Positions 1-40,391 of a DNA stretch of 40,391 nt are shown here, piece by piece. How positions within the stretch are numbered: the stretch's first letter is position 1; every line of letters begins with the position of its first letter. The notes under the pieces were generated by a model. That model was given only the letters and a program-made list of their open reading frames with translations, made no database searches and was not told where the DNA came from. This stretch comes from a virus. Its lineage: Duplodnaviria; Caudoviricetes. The DNA lies in IMG/VR virus record IMGVR_UViG_3300030100_001240, positions 1-40,391 of that record; one strand, given 5' to 3'. The position numbers and the translations under genes are program-made.

Positions 1-96
1 ATCTTCAATTGCTGCGCTCATAAATCACTCCGTAGTTAGTTGCCGTATAACAACAACAGGCAGCGCGACACTGCGTGCGCCTGCTGTAAGGGTTAT
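1..96 (+). repeat. Exact copy of 39970-40065 (end of cassette C plus its attC)
   Basis: Identical through ...TAAGGGTTAT, then diverges (AACTCC vs GTGCGC). Confidence 0.95.
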
Positions 97-98
97 AA
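45..98 (+). other. attC-like site of cassette C (second copy, joined to cassette E)
   Basis: GTATAAC-AACAA-CAG[G]CAGC...CCTGCTG-TAAGG-GTTATAA. Confidence 0.85.
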
Positions 99-101
99 CT
101 C

Positions 102-344
102 CTATCGGGCGCAAACAAACTTGTCGCCAGCTTTAAGTATTTTCACAGGCTGGTTCATATCCCGCCGCTCGGTGTATTGGTCGTGCAGATTGTTCAGGTC
201 TAATATCACCTTCACGTTCTGCTTTTTGAGCGTGTCATAGTGATGCCCGCATACAAAAAAGCTCTCACGATCTTTGGATGTTGCGGTGTCGCCTTCGCGC
301 ATATCTGACAGCTTTTCGTACTTTTCAATAAATTCTACATTCAC
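102..344 (-). CDS. Cassette E hypothetical protein (80 aa)
   Basis: 3' part of ORF 102..485; GTG start at 344 preceded by AAGGAG; lies inside cassette 93-405. Confidence 0.7.
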   Translation of the reverse strand: MNVEFIEKYEKLSDMREGDTATSKDRESFFVCGHHYDTLKKQNVKVILDLNNLHDQYTERRDMNQPVKILKAGDKFVCAR

Positions 345-363
345 AGCTTGTCTCCTTAATGCG

Positions 364-411
364 TTATAACAATCACAGGCACGGGACAGGCCCGTGCTGT
401 GGGGGTTAGGC
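364..411 (+). other. attC-like site of cassette E (48 bp, very short)
   Basis: TTATAAC-AATCA-CAG[G]CACG-GGACAGGCC-CGTGCTG-TGGGG-GTTAGGC. Confidence 0.85.
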
Positions 412-735
412 GTGATTTCTACCGGTTTCGCAGTGGTGGCATTGCTTTTCGCCGCCCCTGAATTTGTATCGTTGGTGTATGCCAAGCCAGCGGCACAGTT
501 TGGGATTAATGTGCACGTAGGCGAAGTTGGTCACGGCGGTATGCCACTTCTTGCTGCGGTTAAAGGTGATGGATTTGGAGTACTGCATCCAACCGCGAGG
601 GCGCACTGTAATTTCATAGCGCAACGGGTTTAGCCACCACTTCAACGGCACGCATCGTCTTGGTATGTCCGCATCGCCAATCATGTAGATCAGGATGGCG
701 CGGGTATTCAAAACCATCTGTTCTGGGCAATTCAT
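406..735 (-). CDS. Cassette F hypothetical protein with C-terminal CxxC
   Basis: ORF 406..801; likely ATG at 735 after GAGAGG; stop TAA overlaps the GTTA core at 405. Confidence 0.65.
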   Translation of the reverse strand: MNCPEQMVLNTRAILIYMIGDADIPRRCVPLKWWLNPLRYEITVRPRGWMQYSKSITFNRSKKWHTAVTNFAYVHINPKLCRWLGIHQRYKFRGGEKQCHHCETGRNHA

Positions 736-756
736 ATTTTCAACCTCTCTAAAAAC

Positions 757-827
757 GCCTAGCAACGGTAGGCTGTCGGACTTCGTTACGCTGCGCTTCA
801 CTGCGCAGTTGCTATTGGGGGTTAGTT
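757..827 (+). other. Degenerate attC-like site of cassette F
   Basis: R'' is GCCTAGC (AAC changed to AGC) and L' pairs poorly; 5' ~45 nt nearly identical to the attC at 39585. Confidence 0.7.
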
Positions 828-998
828 GCCTTCCTTAATTTTTGCTTTGAGTTTCGCGTTCTCAATACGTAGCCGCTTGTTCTCTGCTTCCAGCTCGCGC
901 TTTTGCTGTCGGCGCTCGTAACGGCTGCCCCATACTTCAGTCGCAGCCGTGGAACTTTCATTGCATTGCCGGTTTATCGGCATCGGCGGGTATCTCAT
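822..998 (-). CDS. Cassette G small coiled-coil protein (58 aa, MRYPPMPINRQC...KIKEGN)
   Basis: Translated by hand (below the ORF-track cutoff); GAGGA RBS; stop overlaps the GTTA core at 821. Confidence 0.7.
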   Translation of the reverse strand: MRYPPMPINRQCNESSTAATEVWGSRYERRQQKRELEAENKRLRIENAKLKAKIKEGN

Positions 999-1033
999 AT
1001 TGTAAATCCTCTATTCACGTTCAAGTTTTTGGC

Positions 1034-1101
1034 AACTAACAACACGCTATTGCCGGACTGCCTACGCTTCGCTTCGGCAGCCGCAAAGCTGGGGGTTAGC
1101 A
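1034..1101 (+). other. attC-like site of cassette G
   Basis: AACTAAC-AACAC-GCT[A]TTGC...GCAAAGC-TGGGG-GTTAGCA. Confidence 0.85.
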
Positions 1102-1353
1102 GGCCAACTGTGCCCGGCAAATTTCAAGCTGGCGCCCTATCGAAAGGCCAGTCTTTTCTTTGTGCGCAACGAGCTGATCAGCAAGTATTTGTGGTGTCAG
1201 GTCGCACGCCTCCATGGTCAGTTTCATAAATTCCTTTTTGTCTTTCTCATCCATCCATGACTCGAACATCGGCTCAAAGATCAGTTTCGCAATCTCATCA
1301 GGCCGCGTTAACAACTCGGTCAAATCGGACTCACTACGCTTCGCTTCGTTCAC
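1096..1353 (-). CDS. Cassette H hypothetical protein (start codon lies inside its attC)
   Basis: GGAGG-6 nt-GTG inside attC 1306-1373; stop overlaps the core at 1095. Confidence 0.7.
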   Translation of the reverse strand: MNEAKRSESDLTELLTRPDEIAKLIFEPMFESWMDEKDKKEFMKLTMEACDLTPQILADQLVAHKEKTGLSIGRQLEICRAQLAC

Positions 1354-1373
1354 CGTTCACCTCCGGGTTATGG
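1306..1373 (+). other. attC-like site of cassette H
   Basis: CGTTAAC-AACTC-GGT[C]AAAT...GTTCACC-TCCGG-GTTATGG. Confidence 0.8.
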
Positions 1374-1649
1374 GGCTTGCAGTATCCGGCCAAGCCGCAA
1401 TATGTGTACCGCTTCGCCTTCAGGCGCGCCCCATTCAGTTATTCCAGGTCCACCCAGGTGCTCGCCCAGTTCGATCAGCATAGTTGGCGAGGTCGGGCTG
1501 TAGCCGTTGCGAAATTGGATCGCGTCAAACTTTTTATTGTTCAGCCGGCGATTCCAATACGGCTTCATCTCGCGGTATTCCTCTTTCTTCTCGCCGCTGG
1601 CTATCATGTCAAACCAGCGCTTTTTCAATGTAAGGTGTAGCACTTTCAT
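1368..1649 (-). CDS. ASCH/PUA-like domain protein
   Basis: LHLTLKKRWFDMIASGEKKEEYRE...FRNGY motif. Confidence 0.8.
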   Translation of the reverse strand: MKVLHLTLKKRWFDMIASGEKKEEYREMKPYWNRRLNNKKFDAIQFRNGYSPTSPTMLIELGEHLGGPGITEWGAPEGEAVHILRLGRILQAP

Positions 1650-5616: not shown

Positions 5617-5638
5617 AAAAAAGCCCGGTTACCCGGGC
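5617..5638 (-). terminator. Intrinsic terminator
   Basis: GCCCGG-GTAA-CCGGGC-TTTTTT on the minus strand. Confidence 0.7.
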
Positions 5639-6102: not shown

Positions 6103-6285
6103 TCAGGTGAGTGTGTGTTCCATGTTGGCCAGTGCGCGCAGCACGGCTTCCCGGTGCCGTATCCACACCGCCCCGCTGTGGTTGGCATGCAACCAGAGCA
6201 TGACTTTGAGCGCGGCCAGGCACTGATACCGGTGGCCGGGTATGCGCTCGGCTCTGTAAATTTGCGAGGGTGTGGTGTGCATCAT
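6103..6285 (-). CDS. Hypothetical protein (MMHTTPSQIYRAER...)
   Basis: Coupled to the Lar gene; 5' end is duplicated at 6899-6938. Confidence 0.5.
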   Translation of the reverse strand: MMHTTPSQIYRAERIPGHRYQCLAALKVMLWLHANHSGAVWIRHREAVLRALANMEHTLT

Positions 6286-6876: not shown

Positions 6877-6935
6877 TTCCGTGCGCTGCCGGGTTGTTCG
6901 CTCGGCTCTGTAAATTTGCGAGGGTGTGGTGTGCA

Positions 6936-7238
6936 TCAGGCTGTCTCCAGCTTGAAATCTGGTGGGGCTGTGGCTATCGGTCCGTTTGCTTTCAGTTGCG
7001 CCAGCTGAATTTCGATGGATTGGAGTTTGAAGTCAGCGTCCGGAGCGTCGAGGTAAACGGTCCAGTCCAGCAGGCGGGGTCTTTTTGCGCCGAGGCGGTA
7101 GTCTGAGCCAGCAGGGTGTGCGTAAACGGTGAGCCCATCGATGTGCCCGAGATAGGTGACCATTACATCGGCGATCCGGGCCTGACTGATTTCCATGGCA
7201 GCGGCTGTGATCTTCAGTGCTCGCTCGGTGGGTGTCAT
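6936..7238 (-). CDS. Hypothetical early protein
   Basis: GGAGG RBS; ATGA-coupled. Confidence 0.6.
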   Translation of the reverse strand: MTPTERALKITAAAMEISQARIADVMVTYLGHIDGLTVYAHPAGSDYRLGAKRPRLLDWTVYLDAPDADFKLQSIEIQLAQLKANGPIATAPPDFKLETA

Positions 7239-7424: not shown

Positions 7425-7465
7425 ACGCTACACAATACGTGTTCGCATGTCAACACGAAATGTGT
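7425..7465 (-). promoter_or_regulatory. PL-like promoter overlapped by two operators
   Basis: TTGACA-17 nt-TAGCGT on the minus strand; ACAC-N5-GTGT palindromes at 7430-7442 and 7453-7465. Confidence 0.7.
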
Positions 7466-7547
7466 AGTTCGGGTGCGAGCGTATTTCGATTTGCGAATTT
7501 ACAGGGGTTTCGCGGGGAGGTTTTGGTTCAGGGCGGTGCCGGTGCTT

Positions 7548-7804: not shown

Positions 7805-8152
7805 CTAGCTTGCATCCTTCTTGATTTCAGGCTGCGCCCCGTATGCGGGCGGTTGAGACTCAGCAACGCGGTGGAGCGTGTCCTTTCCCCGTGAATCCAT
7901 GCGCACATATTTCCGTGCAAGGGCCTCCAGTGACGGGTCATCGTCCAGGCCACCAAGGTAAGAGGCGGGCTCTTTGAGTATTTTTGAAAGCGCCACGAGA
8001 ATGTCTGGTGGTGGGTATCGGGTGCCTTGTTCGAAGTTCCCCAGGCGAGACGGGGTCAGCCCGGGGACATGGCCGGCCACGGCGACTTGCGTGAGGCCAA
8101 TAGCCTCTCGCGCCGCCTTTATTCTTTTACCCGCCAGTTTCTTGTAATCCAT
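7805..8152 (-). CDS. CI-like XRE-family repressor without an S24 peptidase domain
   Basis: GKRIKAAREAIGLTQ...SRLGNFEQGTRYP HTH; divergent from cro. Confidence 0.85.
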   Translation of the reverse strand: MDYKKLAGKRIKAAREAIGLTQVAVAGHVPGLTPSRLGNFEQGTRYPPPDILVALSKILKEPASYLGGLDDDPSLEALARKYVRMDSRGKDTLHRVAESQPPAYGAQPEIKKDAS

Positions 8153-8167
8153 GGGGCGGAATTTTAG

Positions 8168-8240
8168 ACACGTATCGTGCGGTGACGTACTTACGTTTTG
8201 TGGGCTTGTTGTTGCCTTAACTACACGATATGTGTTATTC
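8168..8240. promoter_or_regulatory. OR-like operators in the cI/cro intergenic region
   Basis: ACACGTATCGTGC (8168-8180) and ACACGATATGTGT (8223-8235) share the PL operator consensus. Confidence 0.6.
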
Positions 8241-8247
8241 ATATTGC

Positions 8248-11051: not shown

Positions 11052-12460
11052 TGAGCGATGCTTTGACTGATTTCAACGATCTGCATTGCGCTCACGGGCT
11101 CGATACTGTTCGAGACCAGGTGGAGCGCGCATATCATAATTTTGTTGAGACGCGCAGCGTTGAATCAGCGCCGCCAGAGCCTGAGCAGGAAGAGCTGCCT
11201 TCACCGCCGGACCTTGATTGGCTGCGGCAAATGCAGAAAACGCGGCAGGGCGCGTTCATGGCCAATATTTATAACGCGCATATGGTGTTGTCTCACGATT
11301 CAGACTGGCAGGGTGTGTTGGGGTACTGTGAGTTCAGTTATCGCATTATCAAGCGTCGGGTGCCGCCGTGGTTTGGTGGCGTGGTGGGTGAGTGGACAGA
11401 CGCCGATACGGCTCGTCTGCGAATCTGGATTTCAAAAAAATACGGTTTCTCGCCGAAAAGCGCTGACGCGGAAGACGCGATACTGGTAGCTGCTCAAGAC
11501 AAAAGTTTTCACCCTGTTACTGAATATCTGGATGGCCTCGTGTGGGACAGGCAGCCTCGTGTTCGCTCCTGGCTAAAAACCTACATGGGTGCGGAGTCGT
11601 CGGCGGAAGATGCGGGTGAGCGTGCGCGGTACGAGCGCTATGTGTCTCTGGTGGGCACGATGTGGCTGATTGCTGCAATTGCTCGCGTTGTTCGCCCGCC
11701 GGTGAAGTCGGACTGCGTTTTGATTTTGGAAGGGCTGCAGGGGCTGGGCAAGTCAACCGCGCTCGAGATTCTCGGCGGCAGTTGGTTCTCGGATACGCAC
11801 TTTGCTCTGGGTGAAAAAGACGGCTACCAGCAAATGCAGGGTGTGTGGATCTGTGAGCTGGCAGAACTGGATTCTTTCAACAAGGCTGAGTCGACTCGCG
11901 CGAAGCAATTTTTCGCGAGTTCTGAGGATCGATACCGCCCTGCGTATGGTCGTCGCGCTCATGCCTTTGCGCGGCAGTGTGTGTTCGCCGGTACCACCAA
12001 TCAGGACAGCTACCTGAAAGACCCAACGGGCAACCGGCGCTATTGGCCGGTGTTTTGTTATCGGCTCGACGCGGTAGCGTTGGCTCGCGATCGGGATCAA
12101 TTGTGGGCTGAGGCCTACCAGTTGTATTGCCTGGGTGAAAAGTGGTGGGTGCAGGAGCATGACAAGCATCTGTTTGAAGAGCAGCAGGAGGCGCGGTTCG
12201 CATCCGATGTTTGGGAAGATTTGATTGTGGAGTACCTACGCGATCCGATGAATAACGCAGAGGTTTATTTCACTACCAATGATCTGATGGCTGGGGCGTT
12301 GCGGCTTGAGCCTGCACAAATGCGCCAGCCTGAGCAAACGCGTGTAGGGCAAATCATGACGCGCCTGGGGTGGCGCAAGTCTCGGCGCGCAGTGCTTGAG
12401 AGTAGCGGTAAGCAGGTGAGGAAGTGGGTTTATGAGCGGCCGCCTGACTGGAAGGGCTGA
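11051..12460 (+). CDS. VapE/VirE family P-loop helicase
   Basis: LILEGLQGLGKST; ELAEL; RPAYGR; GTTN; GNRRYWP. Confidence 0.9.
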   Translation: MSDALTDFNDLHCAHGLDTVRDQVERAYHNFVETRSVESAPPEPEQEELPSPPDLDWLRQMQKTRQGAFMANIYNAHMVLSHDSDWQGVLGYCEFSYRIIKRRVPPWFGGVVGEWTDADTARLRIWISKKYGFSPKSADAEDAILVAAQDKSFHPVTEYLDGLVWDRQPRVRSWLKTYMGAESSAEDAGERARYERYVSLVGTMWLIAAIARVVRPPVKSDCVLILEGLQGLGKSTALEILGGSWFSDTHFALGEKDGYQQMQGVWICELAELDSFNKAESTRAKQFFASSEDRYRPAYGRRAHAFARQCVFAGTTNQDSYLKDPTGNRRYWPVFCYRLDAVALARDRDQLWAEAYQLYCLGEKWWVQEHDKHLFEEQQEARFASDVWEDLIVEYLRDPMNNAEVYFTTNDLMAGALRLEPAQMRQPEQTRVGQIMTRLGWRKSRRAVLESSGKQVRKWVYERPPDWKG

Positions 12461-12462
12461 AA

Positions 12463-12729
12463 TGTCCAACCTGTCCAACCTGCCGCGTGGAGGTTGGACG
12501 CGCTGAAAGCCGCGTCATTACTGGGCGTGTCCAACCTGTCCAACCTGTCCAACCTTTTGCGCGCACGTGTATGTGTTTTTACATGCGCGCTGTAAGGCCG
12601 AAACGAAAACGATTAATCGTCTTGTGTGTACGAATAAGGTTGGACAGGTTGGACAGGTTGGACAAAGCCAGTAGCTATAAGGGTTTCAGAGTGTCCAACC
12701 TCGCCAAAGGTTGGACAGAGGTTGGACAT
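12463..12729. repeat. Iteron-like TGTCCAACC / GGTTGGACA repeat cluster (putative replication origin)
   Basis: About a dozen direct and inverted copies, including tandem triplets at ~12528 and ~12638, right after the helicase. Confidence 0.75.
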
Positions 12730-36716: not shown

Positions 36717-37226
36717 ATGAACATCAAGCTTATTGCAGCATCGGCACTCATAGCGTTTATCGCGGCGTGGCAGGTTCAGGCGTGGCGCTACGGAGGGGCC
36801 ATAGAGAAAATTGCGCATGCGCATACTGAGGCGCTTCGACAGGCTGAGTCAGATGCCAGAAAAGCCGAGAAGGAGCTATCCAGTGTTACGGCGGAGATTG
36901 ACCGGTTGTCCGAACAAGCCCGAGAGAACGTCCGTGTTGTGACCGAGACCGTCGAAAAAGAGGTGATAAGATATGTGGAAACAGATCCTTCAGCTGGCGA
37001 TTGTCAGCTGTCTCTTGGTTGGGTGCGCGCACACGACAACGCCACCCACGCAGAAATGCCCCAAAATCCCGCCCCCTCCGGCGCACCTGATGACGCCGCC
37101 GGCCCGGCTACAGACGTTGACGCCCTTAGAGCCGTCAGCCGCAACTACCGAACCTGCGTCGGAGAGCTACAGCGGCTGAGTGGATTGCAGGCTTATGTCG
37201 AGCAAGTATGTCTGGTTGAGCGGTAA
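36717..37226 (+). CDS. i-spanin (Rz-like)
   Basis: N-terminal TM (AWQVQAWRY), coiled coil, LSGLQAYV C-terminus. Confidence 0.75.
   Translation: MNIKLIAASALIAFIAAWQVQAWRYGGAIEKIAHAHTEALRQAESDARKAEKELSSVTAEIDRLSEQARENVRVVTETVEKEVIRYVETDPSAGDCQLSLGWVRAHDNATHAEMPQNPAPSGAPDDAAGPATDVDALRAVSRNYRTCVGELQRLSGLQAYVEQVCLVER
36973..37179 (+). CDS. Embedded o-spanin (Rz1-like lipoprotein)
   Basis: +1 frame inside Rz; lipobox LVGC; Pro-rich. Confidence 0.75.
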   Translation: MWKQILQLAIVSCLLVGCAHTTTPPTQKCPKIPPPPAHLMTPPARLQTLTPLEPSAATTEPASESYSG

Positions 37227-37239
37227 AGCTGAAACGGCA

Positions 37240-37510
37240 GTGCCTGCAAAATGCCTCCAGTATTTTTATCTCAGCTTTAGTTTATTGATTTAAAAGCGCT
37301 TTATTTTTTGTTTGTACAATCCATCATGGGCGCAACACAGAATCGCCTGTCCAGTCCCTTTCCCACATAACCCGCGCCGTCCGTGGGTTTCCCGCCATTT
37401 TCAGCGTCTTGCAGCATCATTTTGCCTGTTTATTAAATAACCTATTTCGCCCCATAATCTACCATTTCTACCCGTTTTTGCTATTGTAGTGCCTCCAGAA
37501 TGCCCCCAAA
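37240..37510. other. attP region; core around 37320-37336 matches the dusA 5' end
   Basis: Minus strand GTTGCGCCCATGATGGA encodes VAPMMD; arm-type TGCCTCCAG-like repeats at 37240-37260 and 37489-37509. Confidence 0.8.
37301..37420 (-). pseudogene. dusA: Replacement 5' fragment of dusA (39 aa, ...RRFCVAPMMDCT)
   Basis: Translated by hand: MMLQDAENGGKPTDGAGYVGKGLDRRFCVAPMMDCTNKK*. Confidence 0.75.
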
Positions 37511-37528
37511 TTTTTGGAGACACCGAGT

Positions 37529-38587
37529 GTGGCGACGATAACAGCAAGAAAGCGCAAATCCGGCACCCAATATACGGCCCGAATCAGGGTGAAGCGGGAC
37601 GGCCAAATTGTACACCAGGAGTCGGAGACTTTCGCGCGAAAGGCTCTGGCGAAGGCCTGGGCAGACAAGCGGGAAGGGGAGCTGAGAGTGCCTGGTGCGC
37701 TTGAGCGATTAACCCGCGTAGGTGTATCGGTGGGGCAGGTGCTCCAGTGGTATCTCGATGATTATGATGGGGTCAACAAGTTTGGCCGATCAAAGAACAC
37801 CTCGTTGAATCAGCTGATTAATGATCCTGAATTGGCTGGGCTGGATGCGATGTCGCTGACTTCGGGGCAGATGGTTGCGCATGCCAGGCGGCGCCTAGGT
37901 AATGGGGCGGGCCCTGCGACGGTGAATAATGATTTCATCTGGTTGCGCACGGCCATGCGCGCAGTGCGTATTGGTCGCGATCTTCCTCTGGATTTGCAAG
38001 CCATTGATGACGCCGCTTTTATATGTCGCAAAGAGCGATTGATTGCGAAGTCTTCTCAGCGCGATCGTCGCCCGACGCTCTCGGAGGTCGATAAACATCT
38101 CAAGCACTTTTCTGAGCGCGACGGGCGGGCGCAGACTCCGATGGTTGATATTATACAGTTCGCGCTGTTCAGTAGCCGGCGGCAGGAGGAAATTTGCCGT
38201 ATCCGCTGGGCGGATGTGGATCGTGATAAACAGCGGGTTTTAGTGAGGGATATGAAGCACCCGAAACAGTTGGTTGATACCTGGGTGTTTGTACCCGACC
38301 TTGCCTGGCAGGTTTTGCTGAGGCAGCCAGAGAGTGAAGATGGGCGAGTGTTTCCGTACAACAGCAAAACGGTATCTTCTAATTTTACCCGTGCATGCAA
38401 ACTACTGGGGATAAAGGATCTTCGGTTTCACGATTTGCGGCATGAGTGCATAAGCTGGCTGTTTGAGCAAGGCTGGGATATTCCTCGCGTGGCCTCGGTG
38501 ACTGGGCACAAGGCGTGGACTTCGCTGCAGCGGTATACGCACCTGGAGCAGGTGGGGGATAAATACGCGGATTTCACGCTGCGCTAG
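37529..38587 (+). CDS. int: Tyrosine integrase (dusA-associated type)
   Basis: SRRQEEI (R), DMKHP (K), FHDLRHE, TGHK, LQRYTH; GGAGA RBS before GTG. Confidence 0.9.
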   Translation: MATITARKRKSGTQYTARIRVKRDGQIVHQESETFARKALAKAWADKREGELRVPGALERLTRVGVSVGQVLQWYLDDYDGVNKFGRSKNTSLNQLINDPELAGLDAMSLTSGQMVAHARRRLGNGAGPATVNNDFIWLRTAMRAVRIGRDLPLDLQAIDDAAFICRKERLIAKSSQRDRRPTLSEVDKHLKHFSERDGRAQTPMVDIIQFALFSSRRQEEICRIRWADVDRDKQRVLVRDMKHPKQLVDTWVFVPDLAWQVLLRQPESEDGRVFPYNSKTVSSNFTRACKLLGIKDLRFHDLRHECISWLFEQGWDIPRVASVTGHKAWTSLQRYTHLEQVGDKYADFTLR

Positions 38588-38837
38588 ATTTCAGGCGTTT
38601 GTGATCGTGGCGGGCCTGTTCTTTGAGCTGGTCCAGCCATTCTGCCAAATCGTGGGCGTTGATAAGCCATTCGGATTTCTGCGAGCCGCCGCGAAAGCAG
38701 GGCACCGGCAAGTCCTGGTGTCGGGCCTTTGATGCGGCCTTTGCATAGCTGAGCCCAAAGTATTTATCGCAGCATGCCATCAGCGGTATGTCTGCGGTTT
38801 CGTACTCCAGCATCAGTGCCATAAATGTTGACTTCAT
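38574..38837 (-). CDS. PrtN-like protein, probable excisionase
   Basis: STFMALMLEYETADIPL...LPVPCFRGGSQKS..DLAEWLD; convergent with int. Confidence 0.8.
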   Translation of the reverse strand: MKSTFMALMLEYETADIPLMACCDKYFGLSYAKAASKARHQDLPVPCFRGGSQKSEWLINAHDLAEWLDQLKEQARHDHKRLKSSAA

Positions 38838-38860
38838 CGGTCACTCCTGCGTGATAGTGG

Positions 38861-38913
38861 GACAAAGTGGGGTGATATAACGCGACACTTTGTCGTCTAT
38901 TTGGGTGTTATAT
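38861..38913 (+). other. Left boundary of the cassette array (candidate primary insertion site)
   Basis: G|TTATAT core at 38907 with no attC L-box arms; 9-bp inverted repeat GACAAAGTG/CACTTTGTC. Confidence 0.55.
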
Positions 38914-38914
38914 T

Positions 38915-39139
38915 TCAATTCTTCATCGCGTAGTGTTCTGCCCAAATCTCGTCGCACTTGCGTACAGCGTCATAGAAGTGTGTTGGGCCGGTAAACTCAA
39001 CGAACACTTCGTTTTCCTTGGCCAGTGTCGATTTTGTGGCAGTGGTTAGAATCATCATTTCCCTGTCATCATTCATGTATGATTCCTCGCCGCGAATAGT
39101 TGGTCCCTTTCGCCAGCCGTGCATAAATTCAATGCCCAT
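38915..39139 (-). CDS. Cassette A hypothetical protein
   Basis: ORF fills cassette 38908-39216. Confidence 0.7.
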   Translation of the reverse strand: MGIEFMHGWRKGPTIRGEESYMNDDREMMILTTATKSTLAKENEVFVEFTGPTHFYDAVRKCDEIWAEHYAMKN

Positions 39140-39158
39140 CCAGTCTCTCGCTATTTAA

Positions 39159-39222
39159 ATATAACAACTGCCGTCACAGCGACGGCTCATTGCATTCGCC
39201 GCGCGTGCGGCTTGGGTTAGGC
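39159..39222 (+). other. attC-like site of cassette A
   Basis: ATATAAC-AACTG-CCG[T]CACA...CGTGCGG-CTTGG-GTTAGGC. Confidence 0.85.
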
Positions 39223-39564
39223 GTACTCAAACACCTGAGTACTTGGGTTGTCCTCGCCATCGTCATCAGGCAGCAGCGCCACCACTTTCCCAATTTCATT
39301 CAATAGCTGGGCAACGCCGCTTGGATTCCATTCTGTTGCTCGTGCTACGGCACCTCTCCATATGTCGGCGCCACAACCTTGTGACATCATTGATCTGTAA
39401 TATGAGGTGGTTTCGGCTTCCTCTTTTGCCGCCTCTAGATATTCCCCGGTATTGCAACACGGGCACGGCCATGAGTGGTCGTCTGGATCATATCCGTCAC
39501 TATCGGCGTCCCAAACATACCCATCGCCTCTGCATTCAAATGTTCCGTTCTGGTATTCGCACAT
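39217..39564 (-). CDS. Cassette B Cys-rich hypothetical protein
   Basis: C..DGYVWDADSD...PCPCCNT; GAGGA RBS; stop overlaps the core. Confidence 0.75.
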   Translation of the reverse strand: MCEYQNGTFECRGDGYVWDADSDGYDPDDHSWPCPCCNTGEYLEAAKEEAETTSYYRSMMSQGCGADIWRGAVARATEWNPSGVAQLLNEIGKVVALLPDDDGEDNPSTQVFEYA

Positions 39565-39584
39565 TCTTCAATTCCTCAAATCAC

Positions 39585-39654
39585 GCCTAACAACTGTAGG
39601 CTGTCGGACTTCGTTACGCTGCGCTTCACTCAGCCGCAGCTACTTGGGTTATAC
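39585..39654 (+). other. attC-like site of cassette B
   Basis: GCCTAAC-AACTG-TAG[G]CTGT...GCAGCTA-CTTGG-GTTATAC. Confidence 0.85.
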
Positions 39655-39990
39655 GGCCTTCCTATCCAGGCGCTCTATCTCGGCGATTAGTAGCGCAGCG
39701 GCCCGCACCAGGTCGCGCCTTGGGTCTTTTGGTTTCCACCATCTTTCATCCCACGGCCAATCCTGAGGGACTTCTTCCTCCTGGTATCTAGCCAGTGATC
39801 CGCCTAATTTTTTTCGCAATTCACTGTCAGCGTCCAGCAACCATGATCGGCATACATAATGAGAGACGTAGTTTCCGGCCGCCTGTGCCATTTCTCGGTT
39901 TTTATGCTCGTCGTCGTGTTCTGCTGTCCATCCCTCTGATGCTATTTGCCGCTGCCGTTCCTCTAATACATCTTCAATTGCTGCGCTCAT
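39649..39990 (-). CDS. Cassette C conserved phage early-region protein
   Basis: ERQRQIASEGWTAEHDD...WPW..WWKP..RRDLVRAAALLIAEIERLDR, a widespread phage domain. Confidence 0.8.
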   Translation of the reverse strand: MSAAIEDVLEERQRQIASEGWTAEHDDEHKNREMAQAAGNYVSHYVCRSWLLDADSELRKKLGGSLARYQEEEVPQDWPWDERWWKPKDPRRDLVRAAALLIAEIERLDRKAV

Positions 39991-40013
39991 AAATCACTCC
40001 GTAGTTAGTTGCC

Positions 40014-40067
40014 GTATAACAACAACAGGCAGCGCGACACTGCGTGCGCCTGCTGTAAGGGTTATGT
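40014..40067 (+). other. attC-like site of cassette C (joined to cassette D)
   Basis: Same site as 45-98 but R' is GTTATGT. Confidence 0.85.
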
Positions 40068-40232
40068 GCGCTCCCGCATAGCTTCGTCAACTTCAAGCTC
40101 ATCAAGCGCAGCCTGCAATTTGTTCTTCAGCTCTCGCGCAGCGTTTTTTGTAAAATGTTGTTTAATGCCGGAGAACTCCACAATAAATGGGAACACTCCA
40201 GCAGGGTCTACCAGCGTAACTTTGATGCTCAT
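40062..40232 (-). CDS. Cassette D small hypothetical protein (56 aa)
   Basis: GGAG RBS before ATG at 40232; stop overlaps the core. Confidence 0.7.
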   Translation of the reverse strand: MSIKVTLVDPAGVFPFIVEFSGIKQHFTKNAARELKNKLQAALDELEVDEAMRERT

Positions 40233-40250
40233 ATCACACTCCGTATCGGC

Positions 40251-40307
40251 ACATAACAAAGCCAGCAAGCGCGACGGCTGCGCCGCGCCTTCTGGCGGGG
40301 GTTAGGC
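40251..40307 (+). other. attC-like site of cassette D
   Basis: ACATAAC-AAAGC-CAG[C]AAGC...CCTTCTG-GCGGG-GTTAGGC. Confidence 0.85.
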
Positions 40308-40391
40308 GTACTCAAACACCTGAGTACTTGGGTTGTCCTCGCCATCGTCATCAGGCAGCAGCGCCACCACTTTCCCAATTTCATTCAATAG
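40299..40391 (+). repeat. Exact copy of 39214-39306 (start of cassette B)
   Basis: Identity begins at GGG|TTAGGC, the attC crossover. Confidence 0.95.

Follow-up and report, generated by a model that had tools for sequence, protein, structure and literature searches.

Inverted attC cassettes in the early region of a marine lambdoid phage and their counterparts in other phages

Clusters of attC sites in phage genomes have been described by Qi et al. 2023 (PMC9892861), who reported 17 phage CALINs; like the array analyzed here, these are attC clusters without intI. Five of the six phage attC sites tested in that work were recombined with IntI1 and attI1, and the complete integrons it describes are captured ones, of host or class 1 type. 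The text of that paper, which is the part considered here, treats TJE1 and PH101 as arrays of the typical bacterial kind and makes no mention of inverted genes, early-operon placement, cassette sharing or a phage IntI clade. When the genome annotations were examined, the genes in PH101 and in MW202573 were found opposite to the attC sites and those of TJE1 were normal; the two PH101 sites that had been recombined by IntI1 flank inverted annotated genes. PH101 (L293, 75919-77987) has four attC sites, a duplicated pair among them, and its inverted genes are separated by long degenerate stretches, and in TJE1 (L277:244-310 and 1016-1135) a second, imperfect hairpin follows each normal attC before the next gene.

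Toxin-antitoxin cassettes of Vibrio arrays are often inverted. Those with their own promoter (PMC13108822) resemble the present cassettes in having an ORF which is not read from Pc, but they are an inverted minority in normal arrays, whereas here the whole array is inverted and follows an outside operon. In the inverted-integrase integrons of Treponema (10.1101/030866), as in the phage relatives described below, intI shares its direction with the cassette genes. In Treponema it is intI which is flipped relative to attC; in the phage-borne relatives intI has its usual direction relative to attC, and the flip is that of the genes within their cassettes. Sedentary chromosomal and class 1 integrons agree with our array in attC anatomy, sequence family and extended start-to-R'' match, and with its relatives in an IntI above the TIGR02249 cut-off which is divergent from the attC top strand. 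Unlike them, our array has bottom-strand genes, stops in R' and not in R'', and no IntI, and in the relatives intI runs in the direction of the cassette genes, lies 34-47 bp away from an attI-like core and has no CTG-N10-CAG box.

The array and its place in the phage genome

The stretch under study, called the window, is the whole of a 40,391-nucleotide IMG/VR virus record (IMGVR_UViG_3300030100_001240). By PHROG profile search (60 proteins scanned) it is a complete lambdoid temperate phage, circularly permuted, with a repressor-like gene, primase and helicase, Q, terminase, portal, capsid, tail, spanin, integrase and excisionase, and the sequencing runs that match this phage are marine metagenomes. 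The array, inside which the contig is broken, has xis on one side and the last gene of the leftward early operon on the other. Cassette boundaries were placed at the G/TT cut, and the features are as follows.

37514..38587, + strand: phage tyrosine integrase, not IntI (phrog_1, E 1.8e-40; TIGR02249 30.7 bits against a cut-off of 265)
38574..38837, - strand: excisionase (PrtN-like), distal end of the leftward operon (phrog_1300, E 1.8e-22; PF11112)
38870..38914, + strand: left array boundary site, G/TT at 38907; 45-bp hairpin with ATATAAC...GTTATAT arms, z -3.0 and -3.8
38908..39216: cassette W; attC on + at 39159-39222, gene on - at 38915-39076 (or to 39139)
39217..39648: cassette Y; attC on + at 39585-39654, 115-aa gene on - at 39217-39564
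39649..40061: cassette X; attC on + at 40014-40067 (repeated at 45-98), 113-aa gene on - at 39649-39990
40062..40301: cassette Z; attC on + at 40251-40307, 56-aa gene on - at 40062-40232
40302..40391, + strand: second copy of the start of cassette Y (Z/Y junction, contig end), direct repeat D1
93..405: cassette A; attC on + at 364-411, 80-aa gene on - at 102-344
406..821: cassette B; attC on + at 757-827 with a TAGC core, 109-aa gene on - at 406-735
822..1095: cassette C; attC on + at 1034-1101, 58-aa gene on - at 822-998
1096..1367: cassette D; attC on + at 1306-1373, gene on - at 1096-1353, likely starting inside its own attC
1368..1649, - strand: first non-cassette early gene (phrog_625), with its stop in the core of the last attC
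5623..5638, - strand: terminator-like hairpin within the leftward operon
7425..7467, - strand: candidate leftward promoter among operator-like repeats, TTGACA at 7453, 17-nt spacing, weak extended -10 (sequence match)
7805..8242, - strand: repressor-like HTH gene of the immunity region (phrog_8, phrog_4)

With eight distinct attC sites 240-432 bp apart and no intI nearby, the array is a CALIN and not a complete integron; the tyrosine integrase listed above is the sole integrase of the window, and tblastn with an IntI gave no match there. The left boundary site has both cores, lacks the full L boxes and matched neither of the two attC models used in this work (R1 and R2). Its GTT core is present, but the site differs from the attI-like motif of the phage IntI clade; by likeness it may be a vestigial attC or an attI-like site. 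Elsewhere in the genome, tandem AACCTGTCC-type repeats at 12459-12560, directly past the helicase gene, likely form a replication origin, and a 55-bp direct repeat (89%) at 6230-6284 and 6884-6938 lies at the starts of two early genes.

Polarity of attC sites and cassette genes

The earlier note on this DNA had claimed that the attC polarity is on the + strand while all eight ORFs lie on the - strand, and the inverted orientation of the eight cassettes is confirmed. Model R1 was built from bacterial sites only: from 63 GTDB loci sharing the attC loop motif, the 34 sites with neighbouring ORFs in the usual direction were kept, and the window was not used. In the window R1 gave nine matches at E<=5, all nine on + and none on -; six are at E<=1e-4 and three are weak (E 0.11, 0.19 and 2.4), and two of the nine are the two copies of the X site. 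The sites keep R'' (RYYYAAC) and R' (GTTRRRY) cores, 5-6 nt spacers and L''/L' boxes with the extra base; site B deviates, with TAGC in place of TAAC. Minimum-energy folds of the bottom strand are a long hairpin for A, C, W, X and Z (z -1.2 to -4.7) and other folds for B, D and Y.

In a typical cassette the ORF is on the top strand and ends at its attC; here the genes are on the bottom strand in 8/8 cassettes, each with a GGAG, GAGG or AGGAG motif ahead of the chosen start, and these ribosome-binding motifs lie at most about 30 nt from R''. The genes on - have a coding-type base pattern, and the + frames of Y and Z do not. Six of the genes stop in the GTTA core at 406, 822, 1096, 39217, 39649 and 40062, exactly where the earlier note had placed them, while A and W stop 8-10 nt further in. 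Of the 100 other GTTA occurrences in the genome, 14 end a minus-strand ORF of at least 50 aa, against 6/8 at the cassettes (p ~1.6e-4). Start-to-R'' complementarity, which the earlier note had named among the signs of attC polarity, is found in six of eight cassettes, at 8-10 bp for A, C, X, Y and Z and 9 bp for W; B (TAGC core) and D (4 bp match) are degenerate.

A conserved ORF on + had been named as a finding that would speak against the inversion, and none was found. One + strand ORF has the normal cassette geometry (39243-39590); it had no match in 20/20 Y-family loci and its frame is interrupted in 16 of them. Homologs in normal orientation had been named in the same way, and in 80 and 20 viral loci and three bacterial loci no relative of X or Y was found beside a normally oriented attC.

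The gene of cassette D has a GGAG motif and a GTG at 1353 within its attC, and the protein collection has its 85-aa form. Genes apparently starting inside an attC, as in the window at 1306-1353, were also seen in L010, L013, L065, L084 and L198; their first 15-20 residues come from the bottom strand of the site, and these N-termini are similar across unrelated phages and could serve as a marker at the protein level.

The cassette proteins were compared with several collections. The earlier note had assigned a typical phage early-region domain to cassette C. A PHROG match was obtained for one of the eight genes, that of X at 39649-39990 (nine families, best E 3.1e-36; relatives named ead/Ea22-like in RefSeq plasmid records), and none for 822-998, the cassette lettered C here; the lettering of the note may differ. 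No curated Pfam match was found for the eight proteins, and searches of Rfam gave no match; when 1-1400 and one attC were compared with GenBank phages by blastn, only chance matches came up. In the 80 viral loci of the X family, attC matches are present only in the sister contig (L001, below) and four others, all opposite to the gene; among 401 genomes from the order of G002, X occurs in two genomes at three places, with no attC at any of the three by structural scan. Protein Y has 26 matches at E<=0.001 in the protein collection, itself included, with relatives 48-75% identical; none of its 20 viral loci has an attC, and the metagenome scan gave no relatives of Y. Protein D matched only itself in the protein collection. 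The structure model of X (pLDDT 95.8) has its best fold match in 2p06 (Z 6.2, rmsd 2.9 over 75) and that of Y (pLDDT 90.6) has a best match at Z 3.8, neither being a clear match, and the X profile found nothing below E 0.25 among PDB sequences.

The order of the cassettes varies at exact cut sites. Within the window the junctions are W/Y, Z/Y, X/A and X/Z, and in the sister contig L001, otherwise 100% identical over 646, 423 and 7300 bases, W is joined to X at G/TT. Contigs from the sequencing runs were examined for the left part of the array; they break at every cassette, W/X is present in two of four runs, and W and Y have other flanks in one run from a second study, at low depth. Mis-joining is unlikely because the bases shared at the variable joints (at most 9) are too few. 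A ninth cassette, absent from the window, was observed in run contigs between Y and W (window positions 39651 and 39992-40024); it has the RBS and R'' flank of X but a different attC. Depths, which do not equal copy numbers, are 14 for the backbone, 33-36 for W, Y and X and 9-17 for the joints in run X2, and 34 for Z against 142 for the backbone in run X1. It may be that a single array holds W, Y and X twice and that the window and L001 are two different assembly routes through it. Since this doubled-array model fits the X2 depths, L001 is not by itself proof of excision, and its use as such was weakened. The reordered copies with exact G/TT ends nevertheless point to IntI activity, judging from their sequences.

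Inverted cassettes and integron integrases in other phages

A first viral sample of 17 loci was obtained by a pattern scan of IMG/VR. In its phage sites the attC 3' ends are mostly GG/TT, and in bacterial sites CG/TT, a difference partly forced by the first search pattern. For the census, cassettes bounded by two sites of model R2 150-1300 bp apart were counted; duplicates (L002, L085 and two L018 rows), six truncated matches and the isolated matches L022, L029 and L066 were left out. The IMG/VR loci L003 and L170, which have classical arrays, were counted as bacterial context, and six GTDB loci with inverted arrays were labelled prophage post hoc and then verified by their neighbours. L003 has a long classical cassette array beside phage tail-like genes and is likely a prophage adjoining a host integron. 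The census gave 51 inverted, 5 normal and 13 unclear cassettes in phage context (n=69) and 5, 43 and 11 in bacterial context (n=59); stops on the bottom strand fell exactly in R' in 45 of the former and 4 of the latter. The counts are noisy because the longest upstream ORF rule miscalls Y and Z, and the loci counted in the samples are not fully independent. Two of the five inverted bacterial cassettes encode PIN toxins. Labelling of IntI loci by the same rule was dropped as unreliable in GC-rich DNA.

A second viral scan, with the bacterial-type end, gave 64 loci, of which 62 were searched with R1 and 49 had matches. At their 103 distinct sites the neighbouring genes were inverted at 64, normal at 17 and unclear at 4, with no ORF at 18; by locus, 26 were inverted, 10 normal-leaning and 13 other. 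Non-prophage GTDB sites were inverted in 11 cases and normal in 76 (n=121). L010 has arrays in two divergent operons, both inverted, and R2 found no match in three further phages of Qi et al. 2023, P12002L, H188 and jenny 12G5. Inversion is common but not universal among phages, the cassettes of TJE1 being normal. The suggestion of the earlier note that these are a phage-specific cassette class is supported to this extent: the genes are inverted in line with the early operon of the phage, and the inversion sets apart a class of cassettes associated with phages. The rate of PHROG matches was tried as a marker of the class and failed, as 17/46 inverted phage and 14/43 normal bacterial cassette proteins, the latter including acetyltransferases and toxins, do not separate the two.

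Cassettes recur between different phages at 56-87% identity, and phages with and without intI have cassettes in common that are 85-87% identical. One cassette, in L002/L019, shows 33% identity to a window gene that lies outside the cassettes (1659-1979), and L005:7588-8066 is an inverted cassette holding a PF13876 gene, a family equated with Acb4 (10.1101/2024.12.30.630793).

Integron integrases, which the earlier note does not mention, were found in 11 related phage or prophage loci and form one clade, with support 96/96 in a tree of 41 rows that includes IntI1, Vibrio, Shewanella and host chromosomal IntIs (L173 was left out as a long branch) and 98 in a quick tree of 100 rows; the search query was built from clade members, so the sampling is biased. 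Two of the 11 members were scanned with TIGR02249 (cut-off 265), prophage loci L047 and L072, and scored 405 and 389 bits. Phage neighbours were detected by PHROG in 10/11 clade loci, Mu-like and serine-integrase phages included, and the single scanned neighbour of L199 had no PHROG match. In the 8/8 aligned phage-borne IntIs, R135, K160, H266, R269, H292 and Y301 are invariant and the 195-219 region is conserved, which we take to be the catalytic R-K-H-R-H-Y residues and the IntI-specific insertion.

In the clade loci a GTT core with a shared AT-rich motif, here called attI-like, lies 34-47 bp upstream of intI, and a bottom-strand gene ends at most 30 nt from it in 8/11. The intI gene is co-oriented with the early operon and is opposite to the attC strand in L047, L072, L083, L084, L165, L167, L198 and L199. 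The LexA-type box CTG-N10-CAG was found in 0/11 clade upstream regions, one of them only 47 nt long, against 5/7 gammaproteobacterial host or mobile intI genes. In three prophage arrays without intI the host has a chromosomal intI, which in one host is split in two pieces.

Some loci are of interest in their own right. At L047:7161-7661 the first cassette at the attI-like site is normal, host-type and antisense to the early operon, with 57% identity to a chromosomal cassette, and an inverted one follows. L167 is a Mu-like phage whose early operon has intI, an attI-like site and inverted cassettes. Divergent IntI-like genes that fall outside the main clade are present in further phages (L169, L171-L175 and L276), and some of these have an attI-like motif. 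A single origin of all phage IntIs is not supported, as five more distant ones fall in three places of the tree.

Explanations for the inverted layout and its meaning

We consider it likely that the eight attC cassettes have inverted genes so that the leftward early transcript reads them, and that an IntI of the host or of another phage shuffles them. In the related loci the attC top strands run away from intI. With intI placed in the early operon, the transcript would cross the array on the bottom strand, and inverted genes alone would be expressed. In the window the leftward early transcript, probably from PL, would read the cassette genes, which under a host Pc would be silent. The earlier note had placed PL at about 7450; what is present is a plausible sequence match at 7453, and the candidate is absent from the output of the consensus promoter scan. 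As the terminator-like site at 5638-5623 lies between this candidate and the array, read-through or a second promoter would be needed. The consensus scan listed no + strand promoter-like site in 37000-40391, and the promoter-like sites within the array, a weak one in its left part and one in its right, are no more than chance. The phage of the window would be an intI-less derivative or client of a phage integron system and be served in trans.

A wider proposal is that phages have an integron lineage of their own, with a dedicated IntI clade and a compact attI expressed together with the early operon, inverted cassettes that form a common pool, and clients such as this phage that lack intI; we hold this tentatively, at somewhat less than an even chance.

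Replication may instead be what mainly selects the inversion: early genes of phages point away from the origin, and with the bottom strand of inverted cassettes on the lagging template there would be more shuffling, the direction of expression being secondary. A bottom strand that lies on the lagging template is more prone to fold and recombine (PMC8946536), the candidate origin at 12459-12560 is to the right of the array, so that for a leftward fork the lagging template would be the - strand, and the doubled and reordered cassettes suggest high activity. Replication and transcription are, however, confounded in every locus seen, replication leaves the position of intI within the operon and the missing LexA-type box unexplained, and the Mu-like L167, which replicates by transposition, has the same layout. 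We judge it rather improbable as the main cause; lagging-template bottom strands may add a high shuffling rate to the expression-driven layout that we prefer.

It is quite unlikely that the arrays are passive debris, left where a host IntI put host cassettes or empty attC sites at secondary GWT (attG) sites; read on the other strand these are often the TAA stops of leftward genes, which would leave phage genes enclosed by attC sites. IntI does insert cassettes at GWT sites (10.1101/2022.09.11.507474), the last core also holds the stop of the non-cassette gene 1368-1649, and the X and Y families in phages are mostly attC-free. Blind insertion predicts a start-to-R'' match of 4-5 bp, against an observed mean of 7.7 bp in phage cassettes and 4.6 in shuffled sequences (maximum 5.0 in 500), and matches of at least 8 bp occur in 70% of observed and 4% of shuffled cases. 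Bacterial cassettes have the same signature (mean 7.4; median 8, and 9 in phages), so the phage cassettes are not blind insertions; the same cassettes also recur as units in different phages. Passive insertion at GWT sites may still explain the first seeding of an array.

Very little weight is given to a third possibility, in which the attC-derived hairpins now act as RNA structures, translation starts or short homology for phage recombinases and are no longer substrates of IntI. It would suit a genome without IntI, the apparent start of gene D within its site and the degenerate cores of B and D, but the neighbours change exactly at G/TT with at most 9 shared bases, the extra base and spacers are maintained, and PH101 sites of the same layout recombined with IntI1 (Qi 2023). 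That the array was captured from a host chromosomal integron, with inverted cassettes that have promoters of their own as toxin-antitoxin cassettes do, is scarcely credible: bacterial arrays do hold inverted cassettes (5/59, with two PIN toxins) and the attI-like site of L047 has its host-type cassette, yet here 8/8 are inverted with the RBS at most about 30 nt from R'' and promoter-like sites at chance level, and the genes with relatives belong to phage families.

Our verdict on the inverted layout is that it is real and general, an integron variant adapted to phage early operons. In the literature searched, which comprises open papers and the text of Qi 2023, no description of inverted phage cassettes or a phage IntI clade was found, and the layout is apparently undescribed in print. 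Dozens of phages have it, and some of them encode an IntI themselves, which suggests that phages run their own cassette-swapping system. Integrons have been treated as bacterial devices, with the orientation of cassettes fixed by attC strand choice, and the phages here reverse the genes.

The origin of cassettes becomes testable on paired genes, since the same families occur with and without attC and the 8-10 bp start-to-R'' match is kept although the matched bases are now coding. Culturable lysogens are available in Neptuniibacter pectenicola and Spongiibacter marinus. The inverted arrays also provide a list of candidate counter-defence genes, because a related cassette has a gene of PF13876 (Acb4 family, anti-CBASS). 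If the phage integron lineage is true, phage genes, including some for counter-defence, would supply its pool, and early operons would be a birthplace of new cassettes, a mirror of the defence cassettes of host integrons. For the phages themselves, inverted cassettes offer a site-specific route to gene-by-gene mosaicism in their early regions.
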